The translations under genes and the position numbers were made by a program. This document shows positions 294-11,015 of a DNA stretch of 64,000 nt, one piece after another. The first letter of the stretch is position 1, and each line of letters starts with the position of its first letter. The stretch comes from Terriglobia bacterium. Lineage in GTDB: Bacteria; Acidobacteriota; Terriglobia; JAJPHL01; JAPKYU01. The stretch lies in the NCBI GenBank assembly GCA_965206645.1, contig CBDBKE010000004.1:320001-384000 (forward strand), written 5' to 3'. The notes under the pieces were generated by a model. It was given only the letters and a program-made list of their open reading frames with translations. It did no database searches and was not told the DNA's origin.

Positions 294-917
294 ATGGAGA
301 GAAAACCTGCTTGGGCCGGCGCCACTTTGATTCACAGTGCGGGCGCGCTGTGGAAGCCGGCGACGACGTCCCCGTTTCTGGACGCGCTGGCAGCCGGCAA
401 CCTGCCGGCGGAAGTCTTCCGGCGCTGGCTGGCGCAGGATTATTTGTTCGCGAGGGACCTGATGGCATTCCAGGCGATCTTGCTGGCCAAAGTTCCGCGA
501 GACTGCCACAAGCCGCTTCTGGCGGGCCTGGCCGCACTCGACAGCGAGCTGGACTGGTTCGAAGAGCACGCGGGGCGTCTCCGGCTGGATCTGAATATCG
601 CGGCGCATCCCACCTGTCGGCGCTACAGCGATTTCCTGCTGCGCTGCGCCTATGAGCAGCCGTACCCGGTGCTGCTGGCGATACTGTTCGGCGTCGAGGT
701 TTCTTACCTGGCCGCCTGGAGCGCGCTCGAGCCAGTGGGACCCTATGCCGAGTTCATCGAGCGCTGGTCGGGCCCGGCGTTTGCCGACTATGTGGCGGCG
801 CTGCGCAGCCTGGCCGAGCGATACCCGCACGAGGCAGCGCAGGAGTTTTTCAATCAGGTACTCCAGCATGATCGCGACTTCTGGCAGATGTCCTGGGGAA
901 ATTGCCAAGTGTCCTGA
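294..917 (+). CDS. tenA: TenA family protein, probably TenA_E type (no catalytic Cys)
   Basis: PFL..L..G.L....F..WL.QDYLF motif; GVEVSY where TenA_C has PC; start could be 273. Confidence 0.8.
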   Translation: MERKPAWAGATLIHSAGALWKPATTSPFLDALAAGNLPAEVFRRWLAQDYLFARDLMAFQAILLAKVPRDCHKPLLAGLAALDSELDWFEEHAGRLRLDLNIAAHPTCRRYSDFLLRCAYEQPYPVLLAILFGVEVSYLAAWSALEPVGPYAEFIERWSGPAFADYVAALRSLAERYPHEAAQEFFNQVLQHDRDFWQMSWGNCQVS

Positions 918-947
918 GGAAACTGCCAGGTGTCTTAAGAAAACTGA

Positions 948-1571
948 ATGCTGCACAGGATGCTGTGGAAGTCGAACCTAGACCTGGCCCGGGCCTGCCT
1001 GAGTCATCCATTTGTAAACGCACTCGGCGAAGGCAGCTTGGACGCAGCAGCGTTTCGGGGCTACATCGCACAAGACGCTTTTTTCTTGCGGGCTTTCGTG
1101 AAGGCCTATGCGCTGGCACTGGCGCGGAGCCAGGACCTGGCAACCGCGGCCGAGTTCCACGGCTTGATTGGCGGCGCGCTGAAAGAGCTGGAACTGCACC
1201 ACGATTATGCAGCCGAACTGGGGATTGATCTGGCCCGAGTCTCGCCGAATCGAGCCTGTCAGGCATACACCGACTTTTTGTTGCGCGCCGCCTGGCACGC
1301 TTCGCTGGGCGAAATTGCCGCAGCGGTGACTCCTTGCATGCGCCTCTACGCTTATCTGGGCAGCCACCTCGCCGGGAAAACTCATCCCCAGCACCCCTAT
1401 CGGCGCTGGATTGAATCCTACAGCGGAGCTGACTTTGAGCGCCTTGCGGTACGGGTCGAGGCTCTGTTAGATCAAGTGGGCGCCGACACGCGGCCGGTGC
1501 GGGACAGCTACCGGTATGCCATGCAGTGCGAACTGGACTTTTTCTCCGGGGCGCTGGAGACCACAAAATGA
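948..1571 (+). CDS. tenA: TenA (thiaminase II / aminopyrimidine aminohydrolase), TenA_C type
   Basis: HPFV..L..G.L...F..YIAQDAFFL, TPCMRLY catalytic Cys, PY..WI..YS. Confidence 0.9.
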   Translation: MLHRMLWKSNLDLARACLSHPFVNALGEGSLDAAAFRGYIAQDAFFLRAFVKAYALALARSQDLATAAEFHGLIGGALKELELHHDYAAELGIDLARVSPNRACQAYTDFLLRAAWHASLGEIAAAVTPCMRLYAYLGSHLAGKTHPQHPYRRWIESYSGADFERLAVRVEALLDQVGADTRPVRDSYRYAMQCELDFFSGALETTK

Positions 1572-2347
1572 AACCGGTCGCGCTGACCATTGCCGGCTCG
1601 GATCCCTCGGGCGGCGCCGGGATTCAGGCTGACCTGAAGACGTTTCACCAGTTCGATGTCTATGGCATGAGCGTCATTACGCTGCTGACCGTGCAGAATA
1701 CGCAGCGGGTGAGCGCAGTCGAGCCAGTGGCGGCACGGCTGGTTCACGAGCAGCTAGAAGCCGTGCTGGAGGACATTCCTCCCCAGGCGGCGAAAAGCGG
1801 TGCCCTGGGGACAGTCGAAAACATTGAGGTCGTGGCCGACTGCGCGCGCCGGGCCGCATTTCCGCTGGTGGTGGACCCGGTGATGATCAGCAAGCATGGA
1901 GCCGCGCTGATCGCCGACGACGCCCGGCAGGCGCTGGTGCGTCTGCTGCTGCCAGAAGCCTTCCTGTTGACGCCCAATCTTCACGAAGCCGCAGCGCTGA
2001 TTGGGAGCGACGTGGAGAACGTGGAGGCGATGGAGGAGGCCGCCCGGCGCATCGCCCAAATGGGTCCGAAGGCGGTGTTGGTCAAAGGCGGTCACCTGAC
2101 CGACGACGCCGTGGACTTGCTCTACTACCGGGGGCGGATTCAGAAATTCATCGCCCGGCGGGTGTCTTCGGCAAACACGCACGGCACCGGCTGCACTTAC
2201 TCGGCAGCCATCACCGCGGAGTTGTCCCAGGGGCGGGAACTGGAGGCATCGGTTGAAACCGCCAAGCGCTTCATCACCAGCGCCATTGCTGGCAACCCTG
2301 GGCTGGGTAAAGGCTGCGGCCCGGTCAACCACCACGCCGCGCGGTAG
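1568..2347 (+). CDS. thiD: Hydroxymethylpyrimidine/phosphomethylpyrimidine kinase
   Basis: ALTIAGSDPSGGAGIQADLKTF, VDPVMISKHG, NTHGTGCTYSAAI, G.G.GPVNH; ATGA overlap with tenA. Confidence 0.96.
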   Translation: MKPVALTIAGSDPSGGAGIQADLKTFHQFDVYGMSVITLLTVQNTQRVSAVEPVAARLVHEQLEAVLEDIPPQAAKSGALGTVENIEVVADCARRAAFPLVVDPVMISKHGAALIADDARQALVRLLLPEAFLLTPNLHEAAALIGSDVENVEAMEEAARRIAQMGPKAVLVKGGHLTDDAVDLLYYRGRIQKFIARRVSSANTHGTGCTYSAAITAELSQGRELEASVETAKRFITSAIAGNPGLGKGCGPVNHHAAR

Positions 2348-2766
2348 GGCGAGCACTCACCTCCGCGTCGGTCTTCTTCGCGCGACCCGGCGAGATATCC
2401 TTCCAACTGACCCCGCCATCCACCGTGGATAGCAGTCCCCTTTGCCCCGACATCCAACCGTGCATGCTGTCCGCAAAGCTGAGCGAGACTGGCCTGGGCG
2501 AGAACACGATGCTCGAACTGGCTTCGCCCGCAAGTGGGACGCGTGTTGCCGTAACGCTGGTCAGGCTGGCGCCTGTGGTCAGAATAAGCGCGGAGTCGGC
2601 AAACGCAACCGAAATCCTCATACCGGTGGGCACCCTCCTCGACGCGGCTAAGACCTGGACCGGCCTCCACGTCCTGCCACCATCTTCGGTTGCAAGCAGG
2701 ATGCCCGACCTGAAATTTATGCTACTGAGCAGACCCAGGATCATCCACCCGTGCCGAGCGTCTAGA

Positions 2767-4424
2767 CCCGGATTTCCGTTTTAAAACTCCAAAGCTAACC
2801 TTATACTGACCTCCGACGCCAATATTTATGCCGGTTCCAGCGTCAATACAGCTTCCGGAGGTAGAAACCGAGTGGGTGAGAGGCAAAATCAGCCCTTTCA
2901 GTTCTCTTTCAATGCTGCATTGAAGGTCGATTTCCAGGGGTCGCGGGTTACTTCCGACGGCGGCCTGATCCTCGTGCGCAAATCAGACGAACATTTGGGA
3001 TTCGGAGAACTCATCAAACAGCACTTGGCCGATCCTCGGAGAAAGAACACACGGTTGCCCTTTGCTGACCTCCTGCGCCAGTCCGTGTACAGCCGCTTGG
3101 CGGGTTACGAAGATATGAATGACGCGGAACGGCTCTCTCAAGATCCGACGTTCCGGCTGATCGGTTCAGAAAAGATCTGGGAGCGAGGAGCCGCGTTGAC
3201 TTCCCGGCTGCAATCGTTCGAGACAGAACTACTGACGCAAGATGAGAACCTGGCTGGTTTGGCAGCGATCAACCGGGATTTAATCGCCAGGGCGGAAGCT
3301 ATGGATTCCCCGCAACGGGTGGTGCTGGACATGGACTCGACCGAGATTCCGGTCTACGGCCAGCAGGAGCAGAGTGCCTACAACGGGCATTTCGAGTCGA
3401 GCTGCTATCACCCGTTGTTGCTGTTCAATCGCGAGGGTGACTGTCTGGCGGCCAAGCTGCGACCGGGCAACGTGCACAGCGCCGAGGACTGGAAAGAACT
3501 TCTCCTGCCGGAGATCGAGCGGCAGCAGCAGCTGGGCAAGGAAGTGGTGTTTCGTGCCGACGCGGCCTTTGCCAAGCCGGAGATTTACGAGGCTCTGGAG
3601 GAGCGGGAGGTAAAGTACGCCATCCGCATCCCGGCTAACGACAGCCTACAGCGGGACATTGAGGAGTTGCTGACTCGGCCGGTGGGGAGACCCAGCAAGA
3701 AGCCGTTGGTGGAGTTCAAGGGCTTTCTATACCAAGCGGCCAGTTGGAAGACAGCCCGCAGGGTGGTGGCCAAGGTGGAGCATCATCCAGGGGAGCTGTT
3801 CCCGCGAGTAGGGTTTATCGTTACGAACTTGACTCTGCCAAGTCGGGCGGTGATGCGGTTTTACAACAAGCGGGGGACAGCGGAGCAGTGGATCAAAGAA
3901 GGAAAGCAAGCAGTGAAGATGACGCGGCTCAGTTGTCACCGGTTCCGGTCGAACGAGGTCCGGCTGTGGCTCACCATCATTGCCTATAATCTCGGCAACC
4001 TGTGGCGGCGACTGGTGCTGCCACAGAGAATCGGGAACTGGTCCCTGACGAGCTTGCAACAGCGGTTGGTGAAAACGGGAGGACGGCTGGTGAAACATGC
4101 GCGATATTACTGGCTTTTGCTGGCCGAAGGGCACTTGAGCCGGAGGCTGTTCAGCAGCATGCTGCGAACGATCTCGGCACTGCCGCTGCCAGACGGCTAG
4201 CGAACCGGGAGAGAGGGTAATTTTAGGTGCTCAGAAGTGGTCGGGCCGGATAAGTGTCAGCGGCGCGGCAGGCTGGGCAGGCGAACCCCGCACAGCGACT
4301 CCGAAGAACAGCCAAAATGTGCCGCACTACCACCTCAAAGAGGCCAGAGCTGTTTGCGGTTGACATGACAGGGTACGAGGCATAGCTTTTCGGGTGAAGA
4401 GGAAGCTCGAAATGGAAATTCCGG
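2767..4424 (+). mobile_element. IS1380-family insertion sequence, copy 1 (1658 bp)
   Basis: Imperfect terminal IRs CCCGGATTTCCGTTT / AAATGGAAATTCCGG; 5-bp TSD CTAGA at 2762-2766 and 4425-4429. Confidence 0.93.
2872..4200 (+). CDS. IS1380-family DDE transposase
   Basis: TSDGGL, LDMDST, G.QE.SAYNGH, LRPGNVHS, RADAAF, Y..RG..EQWIKEGK motifs. Confidence 0.95.
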   Translation: MGERQNQPFQFSFNAALKVDFQGSRVTSDGGLILVRKSDEHLGFGELIKQHLADPRRKNTRLPFADLLRQSVYSRLAGYEDMNDAERLSQDPTFRLIGSEKIWERGAALTSRLQSFETELLTQDENLAGLAAINRDLIARAEAMDSPQRVVLDMDSTEIPVYGQQEQSAYNGHFESSCYHPLLLFNREGDCLAAKLRPGNVHSAEDWKELLLPEIERQQQLGKEVVFRADAAFAKPEIYEALEEREVKYAIRIPANDSLQRDIEELLTRPVGRPSKKPLVEFKGFLYQAASWKTARRVVAKVEHHPGELFPRVGFIVTNLTLPSRAVMRFYNKRGTAEQWIKEGKQAVKMTRLSCHRFRSNEVRLWLTIIAYNLGNLWRRLVLPQRIGNWSLTSLQQRLVKTGGRLVKHARYYWLLLAEGHLSRRLFSSMLRTISALPLPDG

Positions 4425-4971
4425 CTAGAATAATGAAGCCGACCTCCGCCAGCAAGAGCTTGGCTTCTGGCATACGGGTCCGGGAGCGTGACCGTGTTCA
4501 CGGACCAGTTGGTCCCGGCGGTGCTTGTGGATGCGAGATCGAAGTGTGAATGGGTTCCGTCCTCGCCCTGATAGGAGATCAGAGCCCAGCCATTGAGCGT
4601 GTCCAGGAAGAAGACTGAAACGACGCGCGCCCGCGGGCCCAGGGGCGGCGTAATGTCTTTCCAACTGGCGCCTGCATCGGTTGTCCAGCGAATTCCCTTC
4701 CCACCAGCTAGCCAGCCCACCTCGGGCGTGAGCAGTTTCATCGCCGCGCGGGCCGGCGAGGCGGCGGAGAAGAATAACGCTGAAAATAGCACCATGCTAA
4801 TGGTCACCCTCATCTTTGGCAGCACGGAAAACCTCCTTCGAAGCGACATTCCGGGTGAATCAGACTGAACTGACGATGGCTTCCGTGTACCGTCGCTATC
4901 AGCTGTAGTGTCCTGAGTTGCAAGGGAGAGAGAACCAGGCATCGGCCCACAGGTGGAGTTTCGGGCAGTGG

Positions 4972-6102
4972 TCAGCCGCTGAAGTACTCTTTCATCTTCT
5001 CGAGGAAGCCTTTGTCTGAGGGCGAGTTGTCGGCCGGAGAGATCTCGGCCAGTTGCTGAAGCAGTTGGCGCTGCTCGCTAGTGAGGCGGGTGGGCGTCTG
5101 CACCTTCACCTGAATGTAAAGATCGCCGCGCCCTCTCCCATCCAGGTCGGGAAAGCCACGGCTACGAATGCGGAAGACGGCATCGGCCTGCGTGCCTTCT
5201 GGAATTTTCAGTGTTTGCTTACCCTCCAAGGTAGGGATCTGGATCTCAGCGCCCAGCGCCGCCTGCCAGAACGAAAGCGGGACCGTGCAGCTCAGATCGC
5301 GATCGTGGCGCTCGAAAAACGGATGTTCCCCGACGATAAGCACCACGTAGAGGTCGCCCGGTGGGCTACCCTGCGTGCCTGCTTCCCCTTCGCCGGGCAC
5401 GCGTAACCGCGTCCCGGTATCCACCCCGGGAGGAATGCGCACCTGCAGGGTCTTCTCGCGGCGAAGCCGTCCTTGGCCGCGGCACTCGGGACAGGGGTGG
5501 CGAATGACCTGGCCTGTGCCGTGACAGGTTGAGCAGGGCCGGCTGATGGAGAAAAAGCCCTGTGTATAGCGGACCTGGCCGCGGCCGCCGCACTGGGAAC
5601 AGATGGTCGGCGAGGTGCCCTTCTTGGCCCCTGAGCCCAAGCAGGCCCCGCAGGTCTCTCGACGAGGCACCTTGATCTGCGCTTCCAGACCGAAGGCGGC
5701 TTCGTCAAAGCTGATCTCGAGGTCGAAGCGCAAGTCGGCGCCGCGGTTGGAGCGGGCGCCACGCCCGCGGCCGCCCATCCCGAACAGGTCGCCGAAGCCG
5801 AAGAAGTCCCCTGAAACGTCCTCGAATTCGGTGAAGATGGAAGGATCGAACCCGCCGGCCCCGACGCCGGCGACCCCGGCCGGCCCGAACTGGTCGTAAC
5901 GGGCGCGCTTCTGTGGGTCGCTCAGGATGCTGTAAGCCTGGGAGGCCTCTTTGAATTTTTCCTCGGCTTGCTCGCGGTGGTCCGGGTTTCGGTCGGGGTG
6001 GTGCTCCAGCGCTTTCTTGCGGTAGGCGCTCTTGATTTCCTGCTCGCTGGCATTTCGAGCCACGCCGAGCACTTCGTAATAATCTTGTGTGTTGCCGTTC
6101 AC
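4972..6102 (-). CDS. dnaJ: Chaperone DnaJ
   Basis: DYYEVLGV, HPD, G/F region, four CxxCxGxG repeats; GTG start overlaps the grpE stop (GTGA). Confidence 0.97.
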   Translation of the reverse strand: MNGNTQDYYEVLGVARNASEQEIKSAYRKKALEHHPDRNPDHREQAEEKFKEASQAYSILSDPQKRARYDQFGPAGVAGVGAGGFDPSIFTEFEDVSGDFFGFGDLFGMGGRGRGARSNRGADLRFDLEISFDEAAFGLEAQIKVPRRETCGACLGSGAKKGTSPTICSQCGGRGQVRYTQGFFSISRPCSTCHGTGQVIRHPCPECRGQGRLRREKTLQVRIPPGVDTGTRLRVPGEGEAGTQGSPPGDLYVVLIVGEHPFFERHDRDLSCTVPLSFWQAALGAEIQIPTLEGKQTLKIPEGTQADAVFRIRSRGFPDLDGRGRGDLYIQVKVQTPTRLTSEQRQLLQQLAEISPADNSPSDKGFLEKMKEYFSG

Positions 6103-6674
6103 TGAACTTTGCGCACTGCGACCTTTACCAGCGCCGGGCGGAGCAGCCGCTTCCGAAACAGGTAGCCGCGCTGCCATTCTGTCAGGATAGCCTGGTCGTC
6201 GTGGTCCTCGGTTTCCACGCGCTCCACAGCTTCGTGGAGGTGCGGATCAAATGTCTGCCCGAGGGCCTGGATCGGTTCCAGCCCAAAACGAGCCAATGTG
6301 TCCCACAACTGGCGGGCAATGAGTTGAATGCCGGAGCGAAACTCGTCGTCGCCGCCCTGCGAGGCTAGAGCACGTTCCAAGGCGTCCATTACCGGTAGCA
6401 TTTCTCTTACCACTTCCATGGAGACGCGATGCAGATCCTCTTTCCGCTCCTTCTCCAGCCGTTTGCGGTAGTTGTCAAAATCGGCACGGGCACGCAGGAA
6501 GCTGTCGAACACGGAGGCTTTTTCCTCGGCCAGGCGGTCCCGCTCGGCAGTCAACGCCTGAAGAGGATCCAGGGCTTCCGCCGCTGCCGGTTCTGCGCTG
6601 GCAGCCCCTTGAGAGTTCTCTTCCTCTATTGCTTTTGTCTCCTCGTTCGCTTCCGACTTGGCCATCTCGTCCAT
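6099..6674 (-). CDS. grpE: Nucleotide exchange factor GrpE
   Basis: R..ADFDNYRKR, LPVMD.LERAL, FDPHLHEAV, GY....RLLRPA.VKV. Confidence 0.96.
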   Translation of the reverse strand: MDEMAKSEANEETKAIEEENSQGAASAEPAAAEALDPLQALTAERDRLAEEKASVFDSFLRARADFDNYRKRLEKERKEDLHRVSMEVVREMLPVMDALERALASQGGDDEFRSGIQLIARQLWDTLARFGLEPIQALGQTFDPHLHEAVERVETEDHDDQAILTEWQRGYLFRKRLLRPALVKVAVRKVQ

Positions 6675-6684
6675 GACTTTCTCG

Positions 6685-7743
6685 CTAATGTTGGCCGATT
6701 GCCTCTCCGACCTGCCGGGCCACCTCCGACACGGCGCTGATAACTCGCTCGTAGGGCATGCGCGGCGGCCCCAGCACCGCCACCCGGCCCGCCAGTCCTC
6801 CAGCCGTGATGCACGGCGCACCGACCAACGCAAAATCCTGCATCGGGGGATCGGTGTCCAGCCCGATGACGACCTGGGCCTGTTTCCACTCTGGGGACTC
6901 CGCTTCCTGAATGTAGCGGGTAATGAGTTGGACCAGGCGCTCCTTCTCCTCCAACGCCCGTAATAGGTCGCGCAGGACTTGAGGATTGTCCAGTTCAGGA
7001 CGGCCCATCAAGTGGGAGGTCCCTTCCAGGTAGACACCGGCGCTGGCATCGCTTTCTAGAATGCCTAGTCGCCAGAGCTTGGCCAGCCGCCGCAGCAACT
7101 CGTCGTACCTGGCGCGTTCTTCCTGCATTAGGCGAGTGATTTCGCTGCGCGCGGCTTCCAGGCGCCAGCCGGCAAAATTGCAGTTCAGGTAGTTGGCCAC
7201 GCGGTCCAGTTCGTCCTGATGAAATTCTTCTTCCACTCGGACCACCCGGCTGCGCGCCGGCGCACCGCGCGGCGCCAGCAGTACCAGCACGCGCCTTTCC
7301 GCGAGCTGCACGAACTCGATGTGTTCGAGTAACGTATCGGCGGCTGTGGCCGATACCACAATGCCGATATTGTGGGTCACCCTCGAAAGCACGTGCGAGG
7401 CCCGCTCCAGGATCGCCTGGGGGCCTTCTGTGGTGCCTTGGATCTCGCGCCGAATTCGTTCTTCTTCCTTGCGGGGCAGGTGCCGGACGGGGCGGGCAAG
7501 ATGCTCCACATAGAATTGGTAGGCTTTGCCGGTAGGGATGCGGCCCGCCGAGGTATGCGGTTGGCGCAGGTATCCGTCGGCTTCCAGGTCGGCCATGGTA
7601 TTGCGGATGGTAGCTGGGCTAAGCCGGTCGCGGCGCCGGTGTGAGATCGTGAGCGAGCCGACAGGCTGTCCAGTGGCGATATAGGTGCGGATGATGACCG
7701 CCAAAACTTCCCGGTTTCGCCCTTCCAGCCCGGAGGTCCGCAT
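6685..7743 (-). CDS. hrcA: Heat-inducible transcription repressor HrcA
   Basis: YI.TGQPVGS, SPATIRN.MADLE..GYL.QPHTSAGRIPT, VLGP.RM.Y. Confidence 0.97.
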   Translation of the reverse strand: MRTSGLEGRNREVLAVIIRTYIATGQPVGSLTISHRRRDRLSPATIRNTMADLEADGYLRQPHTSAGRIPTGKAYQFYVEHLARPVRHLPRKEEERIRREIQGTTEGPQAILERASHVLSRVTHNIGIVVSATAADTLLEHIEFVQLAERRVLVLLAPRGAPARSRVVRVEEEFHQDELDRVANYLNCNFAGWRLEAARSEITRLMQEERARYDELLRRLAKLWRLGILESDASAGVYLEGTSHLMGRPELDNPQVLRDLLRALEEKERLVQLITRYIQEAESPEWKQAQVVIGLDTDPPMQDFALVGAPCITAGGLAGRVAVLGPPRMPYERVISAVSEVARQVGEAIGQH

Positions 7744-7775
7744 TTTCAATAAGTTGGAGTCAAAGTAAGCAACCT

Positions 7776-7805
7776 ATTTTACGATTTTCAGCCGGCGGCT
7801 GTCAA
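7776..7805 (-). promoter_or_regulatory. Sigma70-type promoter of hrcA-grpE-dnaJ
   Basis: TTGACA (7805-7800), 18-nt spacer, TAAAAT (7781-7776) on the minus strand. Confidence 0.75.
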
Positions 7806-7807
7806 GT

Positions 7808-7834
7808 TTAGCACTATTGGTATGAGAGTGCTAA
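7808..7834. promoter_or_regulatory. CIRCE operator (HrcA binding site)
   Basis: TTAGCACTA-N9-GAGTGCTAA, one mismatch to consensus, next to the -35 box. Confidence 0.95.
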
Positions 7835-7881
7835 GCAGCCGTCTGCGTCCTGCTTTTTGAATCTTGGTCGGCAGCACCCAG

Positions 7882-9795
7882 CTACTTCGTCTCCTGCTTC
7901 TTCTCTTGCGGGCACGGCTTGATGGACATGCCTGGCGGCAGCTTGGTTTCTGCATCCCCACATGCCGAATCAAGCTACTCCTGCGTGAGACCTCCGGCAT
8001 ATCTCAGGTCGGCTCCCTGGAGCTTGGCGAGCTCGAGGAAGGCCCTCTGGAGGTTGGCGCCGCGGAGGGCGGCCTCCCGGAGGTTGGCGCCGAAGAGATC
8101 GGCCCCCTGGAGGTTGGCGTCGTAGAGGCTAGCCATCCGAAGGTCGGCTTCATCGAGGTCGGCTTTGACCAGGTGCGCCGCCACTTTGCGCGGTTGAAAG
8201 AGGGCCGCCCGTTCCTTGTCCAGTTCAAGGAATGGACCATCATCTTTCTCGCCTGGTGGACCGTCCCAGCGACCCTGTTTGCCTTCTGGCTCAGATACCT
8301 TCGCCGTCACGAATGGGGCGGCACGGGGTTGCACGTTTTTATTCTGGTGGCCGCGGTTGCTCTCGGGATCATTTTCTATCGTTCCGCGGCGCGAACACTG
8401 CGAGGGGCCGACCCTCCGCTGTTTGGGTGGAAGACATTTTGGCGGAACCGCAGAATCTTTCAAGTAGCCGGTACATCTCTTCTTGGCGTCTTGCTTTCGG
8501 TGCTCTCCTTCGGCGCAATCGAGGGGTTTCGGGGACGCAATCCGGATCGGGCCGATATTGCCAGCGCGGAGCAGTTCGTTAAGAAATGGGTGCCGCAGGC
8601 CTTTGGAAAAGTTGGCTACAGCCCGTTCGCCGACCTGGTAGAAGCAAAGGTTTCGATCAAGCCTGAGAACTGGACGGGAATCGGCGATGAGGAGCAGCTC
8701 AACGCCCAAATCGCTCAAGTCAAGGGGGCGCGCCTGGAGGGCATGGACCTCCGTTACGCTTCCGCAGATGGCGCGTTCCTGACCATTCAGGAGCCAGGGG
8801 TAAGCGCGCTCATCCAACCGCTTGCCGTCGGGAAACTTCGCCGGGAGGCCCGCCAACCCTTCCCACAGCATGCCCAGGTAAAAATGGAGATAGACGTAAA
8901 ACCCCAGCAGGGCAAACGGTGCGGCCCAATAGAACCAAGCGATGGGGATTTCCGTCCGTATGATCGGAAGCGGGGAGGAAGCCGAATTCGTGAGGAGCCG
9001 CGCGTCGGTTGTGGTGGCGATCGTCAGCAACGAGTAGGCACAGCCCGACAACATCGCCAGGAAAATCTTGCGTGCGTTCTTGGAGGTTTCGGCGACGGTC
9101 TCCAGTATTTTGAAATCGCGAATGTCTTCCGGCAGTTTTGCTCCGGTTACATCCGCGCGCGCAAACTCCGTCCCCAGGAGTCCGTTAGCACCGTCGAAGT
9201 TCGCATTCTGTAATCTAGCCTCAGCCAACCCTTCAACACCTTCTAGCCCCGCTCCTTGGAGTTTCGCTTTAGTTAGGTCGGCCCCGCAAACGTCGGCCGC
9301 CATGAGGTGAGCCCTCTGGAGGTTGGCTTCGTAGAGGTCGGCCCCCTGGAGGTTGGCTTCGGTGAGGCTGGTGCCCTGGAGCTTAGCTTCTTTGAGGTCG
9401 GCCCCCTGGAGGTTGGCGCGAAAGAACTCGGCCCCTTGGAGGTTTGCGGCGTAGAGGCGCGCCCGCTGAAGGTTGGTCCCGAGGAGGTCGGCCTCCTGGA
9501 GGTTGGCGCCTTCGAAGTCGGCCCTCTGGAGGTTGGCTCCTTTAAGGTCAGCCCCCTGGAGGTTGGCGCCGCTGAGGTTGGCCTCCCGTAAGTTGGCGAG
9601 GACTAGGCAGGCGTTTTCGAGGTTGGCCTTCTGGAGGTTGGCACGGCTGAGGTCGGCGTGCTTACCTTGCTTTCCCTGCGATTCTACCCACTTCCGATGC
9701 GCTTCAAGAATCTCTGCCAATTCCTCTTTGCTGATCTCTCGAAACTCAGGCTTTTCAGAGGTGGGTGCTTCGGGCCCCTTTGTTTCCTCGTTCAT
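7882..9795 (-). pseudogene. Pentapeptide-repeat membrane protein with an internal 612-bp inversion (8170-8781) and a premature TAG (7975-7977)
   Basis: A[DN]LxG repeats at both ends and TM segments; the native-looking middle is on the + strand; past the TAG the frame continues LDSACGDAETKLPPG to a stop at 7882. Confidence 0.8.
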
Positions 9796-9877
9796 CTTGC
9801 CTGCCCCTTGACCACGCCGGGGATAAAGATCCACGGCCTGCGACATCTTAGCAGCATGCAGAAAGAACCTGCCAGCG

Positions 9878-9951
9878 TGTCATTCCGAGCGGTGACAGTC
9901 TACTGCCGCTACAGATTGAAAAGCAGATTCCTCGCTGCGCTCGGAATGACA
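9878..9951. repeat. REP-like palindromic element (GTCATTCCGAGCG type)
   Basis: Perfect 14-bp IR TGTCATTCCGAGCG (9878-9891) / CGCTCGGAATGACA (9938-9951); the 29-bp right unit recurs at 12998 and 55997. Confidence 0.8.
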
Positions 9952-10031
9952 ACGGGGCAGGAACCTGAAACCGCAGCGCCTGCGGGCACGTCATCACAAC
10001 ACAGAGGCCACCACAGAGGGGAGGAGTTCCA

Positions 10032-11015
10032 ATGCGCCTGCCTGCCGTCCCGCTGTTCCTGCTTCTGGTTGCATTCTCCCTGCCTGTTTTCCCGGCCCCG
10101 ATCGAGCCGACGATTCCGGAAACGACCATTCGGGTGGACGTGAACCTGGTCAGCTTCCCCGCAACTGTCACCGACCGCTATAGGCGCTATGTGGGCTCCC
10201 TGCGCCGGCGGGACTTCACCTTGTATGAGGACGGCGTGCCGCAGAAGATCGCCGTCTTCCACAACGAAATTGTGCCTGTTAGCGTGGGCGTGGTGATTGA
10301 CACCAGCGGGAGCATGGTGGACAAGATTCAGGAGGCGGCCGACGCCCTGACTTACTTCGTCAACACCATCCAGCCCGAGGATGACGTCTTTCTGATCCGC
10401 TTCGCGCGAACCGTCAAGCTGGAACTGGACTTCACCGCGAACCGGGCGCTGTTCCGCCGGGCAGCCTACCGGCTGCGCGCTCGAGGCTCCACGCGGCTCT
10501 ATGACGCGCTGGCCGAAGCGCTGGACAAAGTCCGAAGCGGGCTGCATCAGAAGAAGGCCATCGTGCTAATTACCGACGGCAACGACACTTCCAGCTACGT
10601 CGGCTTCGAGGAGGTGTTGGAGATGGCGCGCCGCTCCGAAGTGCTGGTCTACGCAATGGGGATTGGGCACGGGCACCGCGGCTTGCTGGGCGAACTTCGC
10701 CGCCACGCGCGCCGGCGGCGGGGCCAAGACCGGGTGGACATGCGGGTCCTGGGGGCCATTGCCGGCGCTACCGGCGGCTTCGCCTTCCACCTGGAGAATG
10801 CGCACCGCCCGGGAGCAGACCTGATTGACCAGGCTGCGCAGGAAATTTCCACCGAGCTGCGGCAGCACTACACCATCGGCTACTATCCCACCAACGCCGC
10901 GCGAGACGGAACCTACCGGAATATCAAGCTGGAGGCCAAAGTGCCCGGCCTGAGAGTCCGTCACCGCCGTGGCTACTATTCGCCGGGGGAAACCTCCGCC
11001 CGTGCGCGGCCTTGA
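10032..11015 (+). CDS. VWA-domain protein, Acidobacterial VWFA-related type (secreted)
   Basis: Signal peptide, IRVDVNLV, DTSGSM MIDAS, T.LYDA, ITDG.D, Y.IGYYPTN..RDG.YR, RRGYY. Confidence 0.92.
   Translation: MRLPAVPLFLLLVAFSLPVFPAPIEPTIPETTIRVDVNLVSFPATVTDRYRRYVGSLRRRDFTLYEDGVPQKIAVFHNEIVPVSVGVVIDTSGSMVDKIQEAADALTYFVNTIQPEDDVFLIRFARTVKLELDFTANRALFRRAAYRLRARGSTRLYDALAEALDKVRSGLHQKKAIVLITDGNDTSSYVGFEEVLEMARRSEVLVYAMGIGHGHRGLLGELRRHARRRRGQDRVDMRVLGAIAGATGGFAFHLENAHRPGADLIDQAAQEISTELRQHYTIGYYPTNAARDGTYRNIKLEAKVPGLRVRHRRGYYSPGETSARARP

Follow-up and report, generated by a model that had tools for sequence, protein, structure and literature searches.

Why does a gene that reads like a normal pentapeptide-repeat membrane protein at both ends become unprotein-like for 204 codons in between, and is this block a reversible switch, the mark of a single event or an error of assembly? 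The gene lies in a 64,000-nucleotide stretch of the genome of a Terriglobia bacterium, which is called the window here. Its current open reading frame (ORF) spans 7975..9846 on the minus strand and encodes 623 aa from the first ATG, and gene calls in other assemblies start at Met18 of this ORF.

An inverted 612-bp block in a pentapeptide-repeat gene

The N-terminal part of the gene (8782..9846, minus strand) is in native orientation and makes up the first 355 codons, in which a PF00805 array is followed by the first membrane helices and which end with ...ERAYPWLLNG. The C-terminal part (7975..8169, minus strand), also in native orientation, is a short pentapeptide-repeat array of 64 codons that resumes with VKADLDEADL. 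Compared with PF00805 (Pfam cut-off 20.2), the N-terminal part scored 142.9 bits (E = 1.8e-42) and the C-terminal part 56.4 bits (E = 2e-15). With tandem repeats above the cut-off in both parts, the protein is a member of the PF00805 family.

Between these parts lies a block of 612 bp, or 204 codons (8170..8781), the native frame of which is now on the plus strand. The original prediction had placed the break in the minus-strand frame after ERAYPWLLNG and its resumption 204 codons later, and these coordinates and frames held exactly. The plus-strand translation, QVRRHFARLK...GAFL, contains three hydrophobic 19-residue segments, in line with the helices predicted there, and a linker, while the minus-strand reading contains no such segment. 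As part of the ORF, the minus-strand reading is hydrophilic and known only from this lineage; its 204 codons hold no stop and matched no Pfam family, and the central block as such has no Pfam family either. The codon-usage score of the ORF was +8 to +29 over the N-terminal part and -5 to -14 over the block, indicating that codon usage over the block is still that of the other strand.

Comparison with the protein family gave the ancestral order of these parts. The plus-strand frame of the block was matched in 120 of 126 fetched family proteins, always collinear within one polypeptide, and this un-inverted architecture is common to hundreds of proteins across many phyla. Homologs aligned to the minus-strand middle block had been named beforehand as the observation that would speak against an inversion; such matches were confined to the remaining 6/126 proteins, all from this lineage, and these six, the window's own protein included, form one 90%-identity cluster. 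Among 61 related genomes searched, the plus-strand reading was found in six, again including the window's own. In the other five genomes (G003 and four more distant ones), the block sits inside single open frames of 681-756 aa, and the 734-aa ORF of G003, which belongs to the same genus, reads ...PWLLNG-LVRRHF...DGAFV-VKADL.... When the block was flipped in a script, one frame resulted, which aligned to the G003 ORF in a single HSP (identity 436/617) that crossed both junctions without a gap at either. The predicted seamless flip was borne out as to frame and length, with a departure from the family at a single residue, the Gln at the first junction, where un-inverted homologs have other residues (see below). 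Against the ancestral gene order, the inversion is exact, with a few bases of homology at its ends and no bases gained or lost. These results confirmed an exact inversion of 612 bp (204 codons) at 8170-8781 within the ORF 7975..9846.

Searches with the block found no relative on the genome contigs covered, and one locus on metagenome contigs (L007, 44% identity), which is uninformative on the breakpoints or on near-identical strains. G001, a genome of the same genus that is 96% complete, gave no match to the block with the query used; the genus may be able to do without the gene, or a G001 copy may have diverged beyond detection.

A plus-strand open frame of 449 codons (7864-9213) crosses the block into the antisense of both repeat arrays, and it is more plausibly a by-product of G+C-rich repeats than a gene. 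A consensus scan found no plus-strand promoter-like site able to express the block alone, and Rfam gave no match over 7700-10100 up to E = 1. On one side of the gene, an inverted repeat, TTAGCACT-a-N9-GAGTGCTAA, lies at 7808-7834, just upstream of hrcA-grpE (6099..7749, minus strand), and presumably represents a CIRCE heat-shock operator, the consensus of which it matches. Beside it, a strong promoter-like site, TTGACA-18-TAAAAT, was found at 7776-7805 on the minus strand. On the other side, a 35-base element (GAAAAGCAGATTCCTCGCTGCGCTCGGAATGACAA, 9918-9952) has 13 copies with 90-100% identity in this genome. Its word depths were 808-10,041 in all four metagenome runs used below, against 9.5-316 beside it, and it had loose ends into many different contexts and no Rfam match. 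This element is a short dispersed repeat common to many organisms of these samples.

Distribution among strains and later lesions

The same inverted ORF was present in five other assemblies (P0005 and P0125-P0128, on contigs of 61 kb to 1.76 Mb), in each of which the antisense-derived stretch of 204 residues recurs with 0 to 4 residue differences. Contigs of four metagenome runs from four studies were also compared with 7000-10000 of the window, with the limit that contigs drop rare variants. The left junction was bridged in inverted form by contigs of all four runs, and the right junction in two of the four (X4 and X7) among the pieces listed. X4, probably the source sample, contained an independently assembled 5551-base contig (Logan) that matches 7000-9947 with 0 differences. 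In X7, one contig runs over 7000-8238 (13 differences) and another over 8210-9103 (4 differences), so that both junctions are bridged, and the left junction was also bridged by a contig of X8 (8047-8641) and one of X9 (7699-8506).

The un-inverted joint, which connects 8172 to 8781 on opposite strands, was seen only on one X7 contig, at a depth of 7.9. Over 308 bases, this contig has 32 differences from the window, about 10% divergence, and so comes from another organism with the ancestral arrangement. The inverted state was thus inherited in six of six alleles and in the contigs of four studies, each with its own point differences, and as far as contigs can show, the inversion is fixed in the lineage. 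The original prediction had stated that finding only the current orientation across samples would mean a fixed lesion rather than a switch, and within the reach of contigs this was the outcome.

The alleles also carry lesions of their own. In the window, the ORF ends at a strain-specific TAG (7975..7977, minus strand), which is CAG (Gln) in runs X7, X8 and X9, with G at 7977. Beyond this stop, 30 codons and the original stop survive intact as an orphaned tail (7882..7974, minus strand); the C-terminal tail of the other alleles has the same sequence, and that of G003 is homologous. Of the five other alleles, four read Q at 7975-7977 and continue for 31 residues, and P0127 has a frameshift near its end. 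C-terminal lesions were therefore present in 2/6 alleles, as a nonsense codon in the window and a frameshift in P0127. Inside the block, all six differences listed among strains are non-synonymous in the original plus-strand frame, and all but one are so in the minus-strand frame as well. One of them, 8315 G>A in run X7, turns TGG into TAG in the original plus-strand frame and P into L in the minus-strand frame, a replacement seen in P0128.

Repeat number in both pentapeptide arrays (7975-8169 and 9150-9650) varies among strains. P0125 and P0126 have a 30-residue deletion in the repeat arrays, the C-terminal array shows 10- and 15-residue insertions among alleles, and run X7 has a 30-base insertion behind 8078.

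Breakpoints, open frame and age of the inversion

The left breakpoint region (TGACCAGGTGCGC, 8166..8178) holds the breakpoint within CAGG at 8170-8173, and the right one (GCGTTCCTGACCA, 8773..8785) holds it within CCTG at 8778-8781. CAGG/CCTG is the only sequence that the block ends have in common. The predicted imperfect inverted repeat (TGnnCAGGnnCGC, at 8166-8178 and 8773-8785) does exist, with 9/13 positions matching, and it is no better than background: 7900-9100 contains 58 inverted-repeat pairs, and this one falls outside the 25 longest. The four-base junction motif is itself altered among strains, by 8171 A>C in run X8, which is L-to-R in P0125 and P0126.

To place the junction residues, we used 14 un-inverted homologs (the G003 ORF and 13 fetched proteins), in 13 of which the search pattern located the first junction. 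After the flip, this junction reads Gln (CAG), against Leu in 12 and Met in one of these 13; the second junction corresponds to Leu in 10 and Val in two of the 12 homologs where it was located. The flipped reconstruction is thus one base off the family consensus at the first junction, CAG instead of CTG. G003, the one homolog compared as DNA at this junction, has CTG there, and its equivalent breakpoint sites read CTGG and CGTG. Given the Leu consensus and the CTG of G003, the ancestor probably had CTGG at one arm, and both arms now read CAGG. A conservative inversion of the consensus sequence would be expected to leave one A/T discrepancy, whereas CAGG is seen on both arms. The CAG at the flipped junction is consistent with a CTGG-to-CAGG conversion, and a prior polymorphism would look identical.

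We next asked how surprising the open minus-strand frame is. The genome has a G+C content of 61%, and TTA, CTA and TCA together make up 1.08% of the codons in long frames. With the codon frequencies of this genome, a 204-codon in-frame stretch has no antisense stop with a probability of 0.11, and the empirical value was 0.24 (3196 of 13571 windows). The caution in the original prediction that an open antisense frame is weak evidence in such DNA was well placed. When openness is multiplied by one third for length, an open in-frame inversion of such size is expected in roughly 4-8% of cases, which is uncommon and not remarkable. The antisense of the equivalent G003 block holds one stop. Of the 1836 possible single-base changes in the block, 61 create a stop in the minus-strand frame, and about 9 substitutions would leave it open with a probability of 0.74 under neutrality. 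As the strains are only ~1% diverged, the fact that no new stop has arisen is uninformative.

In protein comparisons, this lineage's block shares 74-76% identity with a tight clade of homologs and 78% with the outlier P0030. With P0030 and the main clade as reference points, a three-point estimate therefore gives the block a short branch of its own, about 7%, and long neutral decay of the block was rejected on this ground. Together with the retained codon usage, the short branch suggests a fairly recent event. The sequence comparison points to an inversion that looks recent and yet predates the ~1% divergence of the strain cluster.

A genome-wide codon-usage scan for ORFs of the sense/antisense-like/sense type was noisy and flagged 13 other long ORFs. 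Two of these (L013 and L016) are ordinary complete enzymes with complete Pfam architectures, the other 11 (L008-L012, L014, L015 and L017-L020) have no Pfam match in the sense frame, and the antisense frames of the flagged ORFs hold stops. The scan is no evidence for or against further inversions.

Competing explanations and significance

The locus is likely the product of a single illegitimate inversion, by microhomology or template switch, which was not programmed, became fixed in the lineage and cost the gene its full-length function. A one-off microhomology inversion was among the options first proposed, and it is the one favoured by the four bases of homology and by fixation across the alleles. 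The 612-bp inversion would have arisen in one event in the ancestor of the strain cluster, where it is now fixed, inside a conserved gene with the order pentapeptide repeats, membrane helices, pentapeptide repeats. Both breakpoints lie in a microhomology of four nearly palindromic bases, which reads C(T/A)GG at one site and CCTG at the other, without gain or loss of a base. The length of the block is divisible by three and the block happens to contain no TTA, CTA or TCA, and for both reasons the gene still reads as one open frame, which gene callers take for an intact protein. Any protein made from it would keep the N-terminal repeat domain and the first helices and lack three membrane helices, with 204 hydrophilic, antisense-derived residues in their place. 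From the block onward, the gene would be free of the old constraint and decaying. Full-length function thus appears to have been lost; the N-terminal repeat domain and two helices may continue to be produced while the rest is drifting. The inversion itself, its fixed state in the assemblies and studies compared and the later lesions are observed directly, and the mutational mechanism and the loss of full-length function are inferences.

As judged from the junctions, the mutational mechanism could be a template switch or breakage followed by microhomology rejoining, which look the same at this locus. Template switching is described as homogenising the arms and inverting the spacer of an inverted repeat (PMC8604942). 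Like the cases in the available part of that report, the inversion here is exact, without gain or loss, has its breakpoints in a short imperfect inverted repeat, lies in coding sequence and recodes a protein. Both of its arms now read CAGG, where one mismatch would be expected from the family consensus (CTGG). The coding cases given there have arms of at least 9 bp and spacers of 2-5 bases, whereas the arm here is 4 bases and the spacer about 604, a difference that counts against template switching. Homogenisation depends on one base, and the ancestor may have carried CAG. Against a one-off fixed inversion more generally, a minority of cells in the other orientation is possible since contigs drop rare variants, and the right junction was bridged by X4 and X7 only among the pieces listed.

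One part of this account, the decay of the block and of what follows it, has to be set against the alternative that the inversion is fixed and the gene is alive. Its product would then be a working recoded protein, kept open by selection and composed of the N-terminal repeat domain, two helices, a new disordered linker of 204 antisense-born residues and the short C-terminal repeats. The minus-strand frame of the block is open in six of six alleles, and the two disabling lesions are confined to the short C-terminal part, lying within the last ~100 codons and sparing the preceding 540. The N-terminal part is nearly invariant outside its repeat arrays, and the conserved C-terminal tail is kept in four of the five other alleles. 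This pattern could also mean that the N-terminal part and the new middle are retained by selection. With alleles only about 1% apart, however, an open frame is statistically uninformative (P = 0.74 under neutrality), and five of the six listed block differences change the minus-strand residue. The minus-strand reading of the block also lacks relatives outside the cluster and any family match, and the C-terminal lesions show that at least the C-terminal part is dispensable. We regard a working recoded protein as improbable. The more specific claim, that the inversion made a new working protein with changed topology which is under selection, is a little less probable again, with the open frame as the one observation in its favour.

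The original prediction had also offered a phase-variable switch, and this idea found no support. In this scenario, a recombinase would still be flipping the segment as an intragenic inverton, the gene would alternate between a full-length protein with five helices and the recoded form, and all assemblies would have caught one state. Recoding intragenic invertons are described as reversible, as worked by site-specific recombinases on flanking inverted repeats, and as present in both orientations in one population ('Intragenic DNA inversions expand bacterial coding capacity', bioRxiv 10.1101/2023.03.11.532203). The present inversion is exact, in frame and open both ways, which is the pattern of the recoding invertons in the available part of that report. 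It is like them in outcome only, being wholly intragenic and replacing a stretch of protein in an open frame, and unlike them it has no real repeats, was seen in one orientation, and has the other frame decaying. No inverted repeat extends beyond four bases, and this motif is mutated in some strains. A single orientation was found in six of six alleles and in all near-identical contigs of the four studies, the sole un-inverted joint being that on the contig with 32/308 differences. The two readings are not both maintained, as the flipped-back frame has a stop in X7 and P0128 (8315 G>A), and two of the six alleles have C-terminal lesions. A recombinase was predicted to be absent from the window, and no match to PF00239 or PF00589 was found in it; the nearest lies at C4:449694, about 66 kb past the window end. 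The genome as a whole has 3 serine-recombinase (PF00239) and 36 tyrosine-recombinase (PF00589) matches, which could be put in favour of an inverton. Such matches occurred in 12 and 14 of 14 control genomes, respectively, so their presence here says nothing. An inverton is very unlikely on these grounds.

An assembly or scaffolding artefact, with the block placed backwards by the assembler, has practically no chance of being correct, and the chimera first suggested is refuted: the X4 contig matches the window with 0 differences across both junctions, and contigs of three further studies and five further assemblies have the same junctions with point differences of their own. Nothing was found in favour of an artefact, the suspicion having come solely from the odd reading frame.

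A single inversion fixed in the lineage, the favoured explanation, sets this gene apart from its relatives and from the usual pseudogenes. Its N- and C-terminal parts match those of PF00805 proteins that carry a membrane module in the middle and are annotated 'uncharacterized protein YjbI with pentapeptide repeats', and unlike in those proteins the central helices are on the wrong strand here. As with cryptic pseudogenes and the open ORFs of high-G+C DNA, a disrupted gene is listed as an intact 'pentapeptide repeat-containing protein' and no stop arose. In contrast to usual pseudogenes, the lesion is an inversion and not a frameshift or nonsense mutation, so it is missed by pseudogene detection based on length and stops, and the N-terminal domain may still function.

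Gene callers are blind to such lesions, and six database proteins carry 204 antisense-derived residues under a normal label. At 61% G+C, being open in both orientations is weak evidence for a switch. The finding opens no new biological mechanism, and the junctions are an uncommon record of a ~600-base inversion that took place with hardly any homology. For this lineage, it is a clean, well-bounded natural case of an in-frame intragenic inversion that has spread. If the recoded protein were real after all, the locus would hold a natural protein segment born from antisense DNA through an in-frame inversion, with a change of topology in one step.
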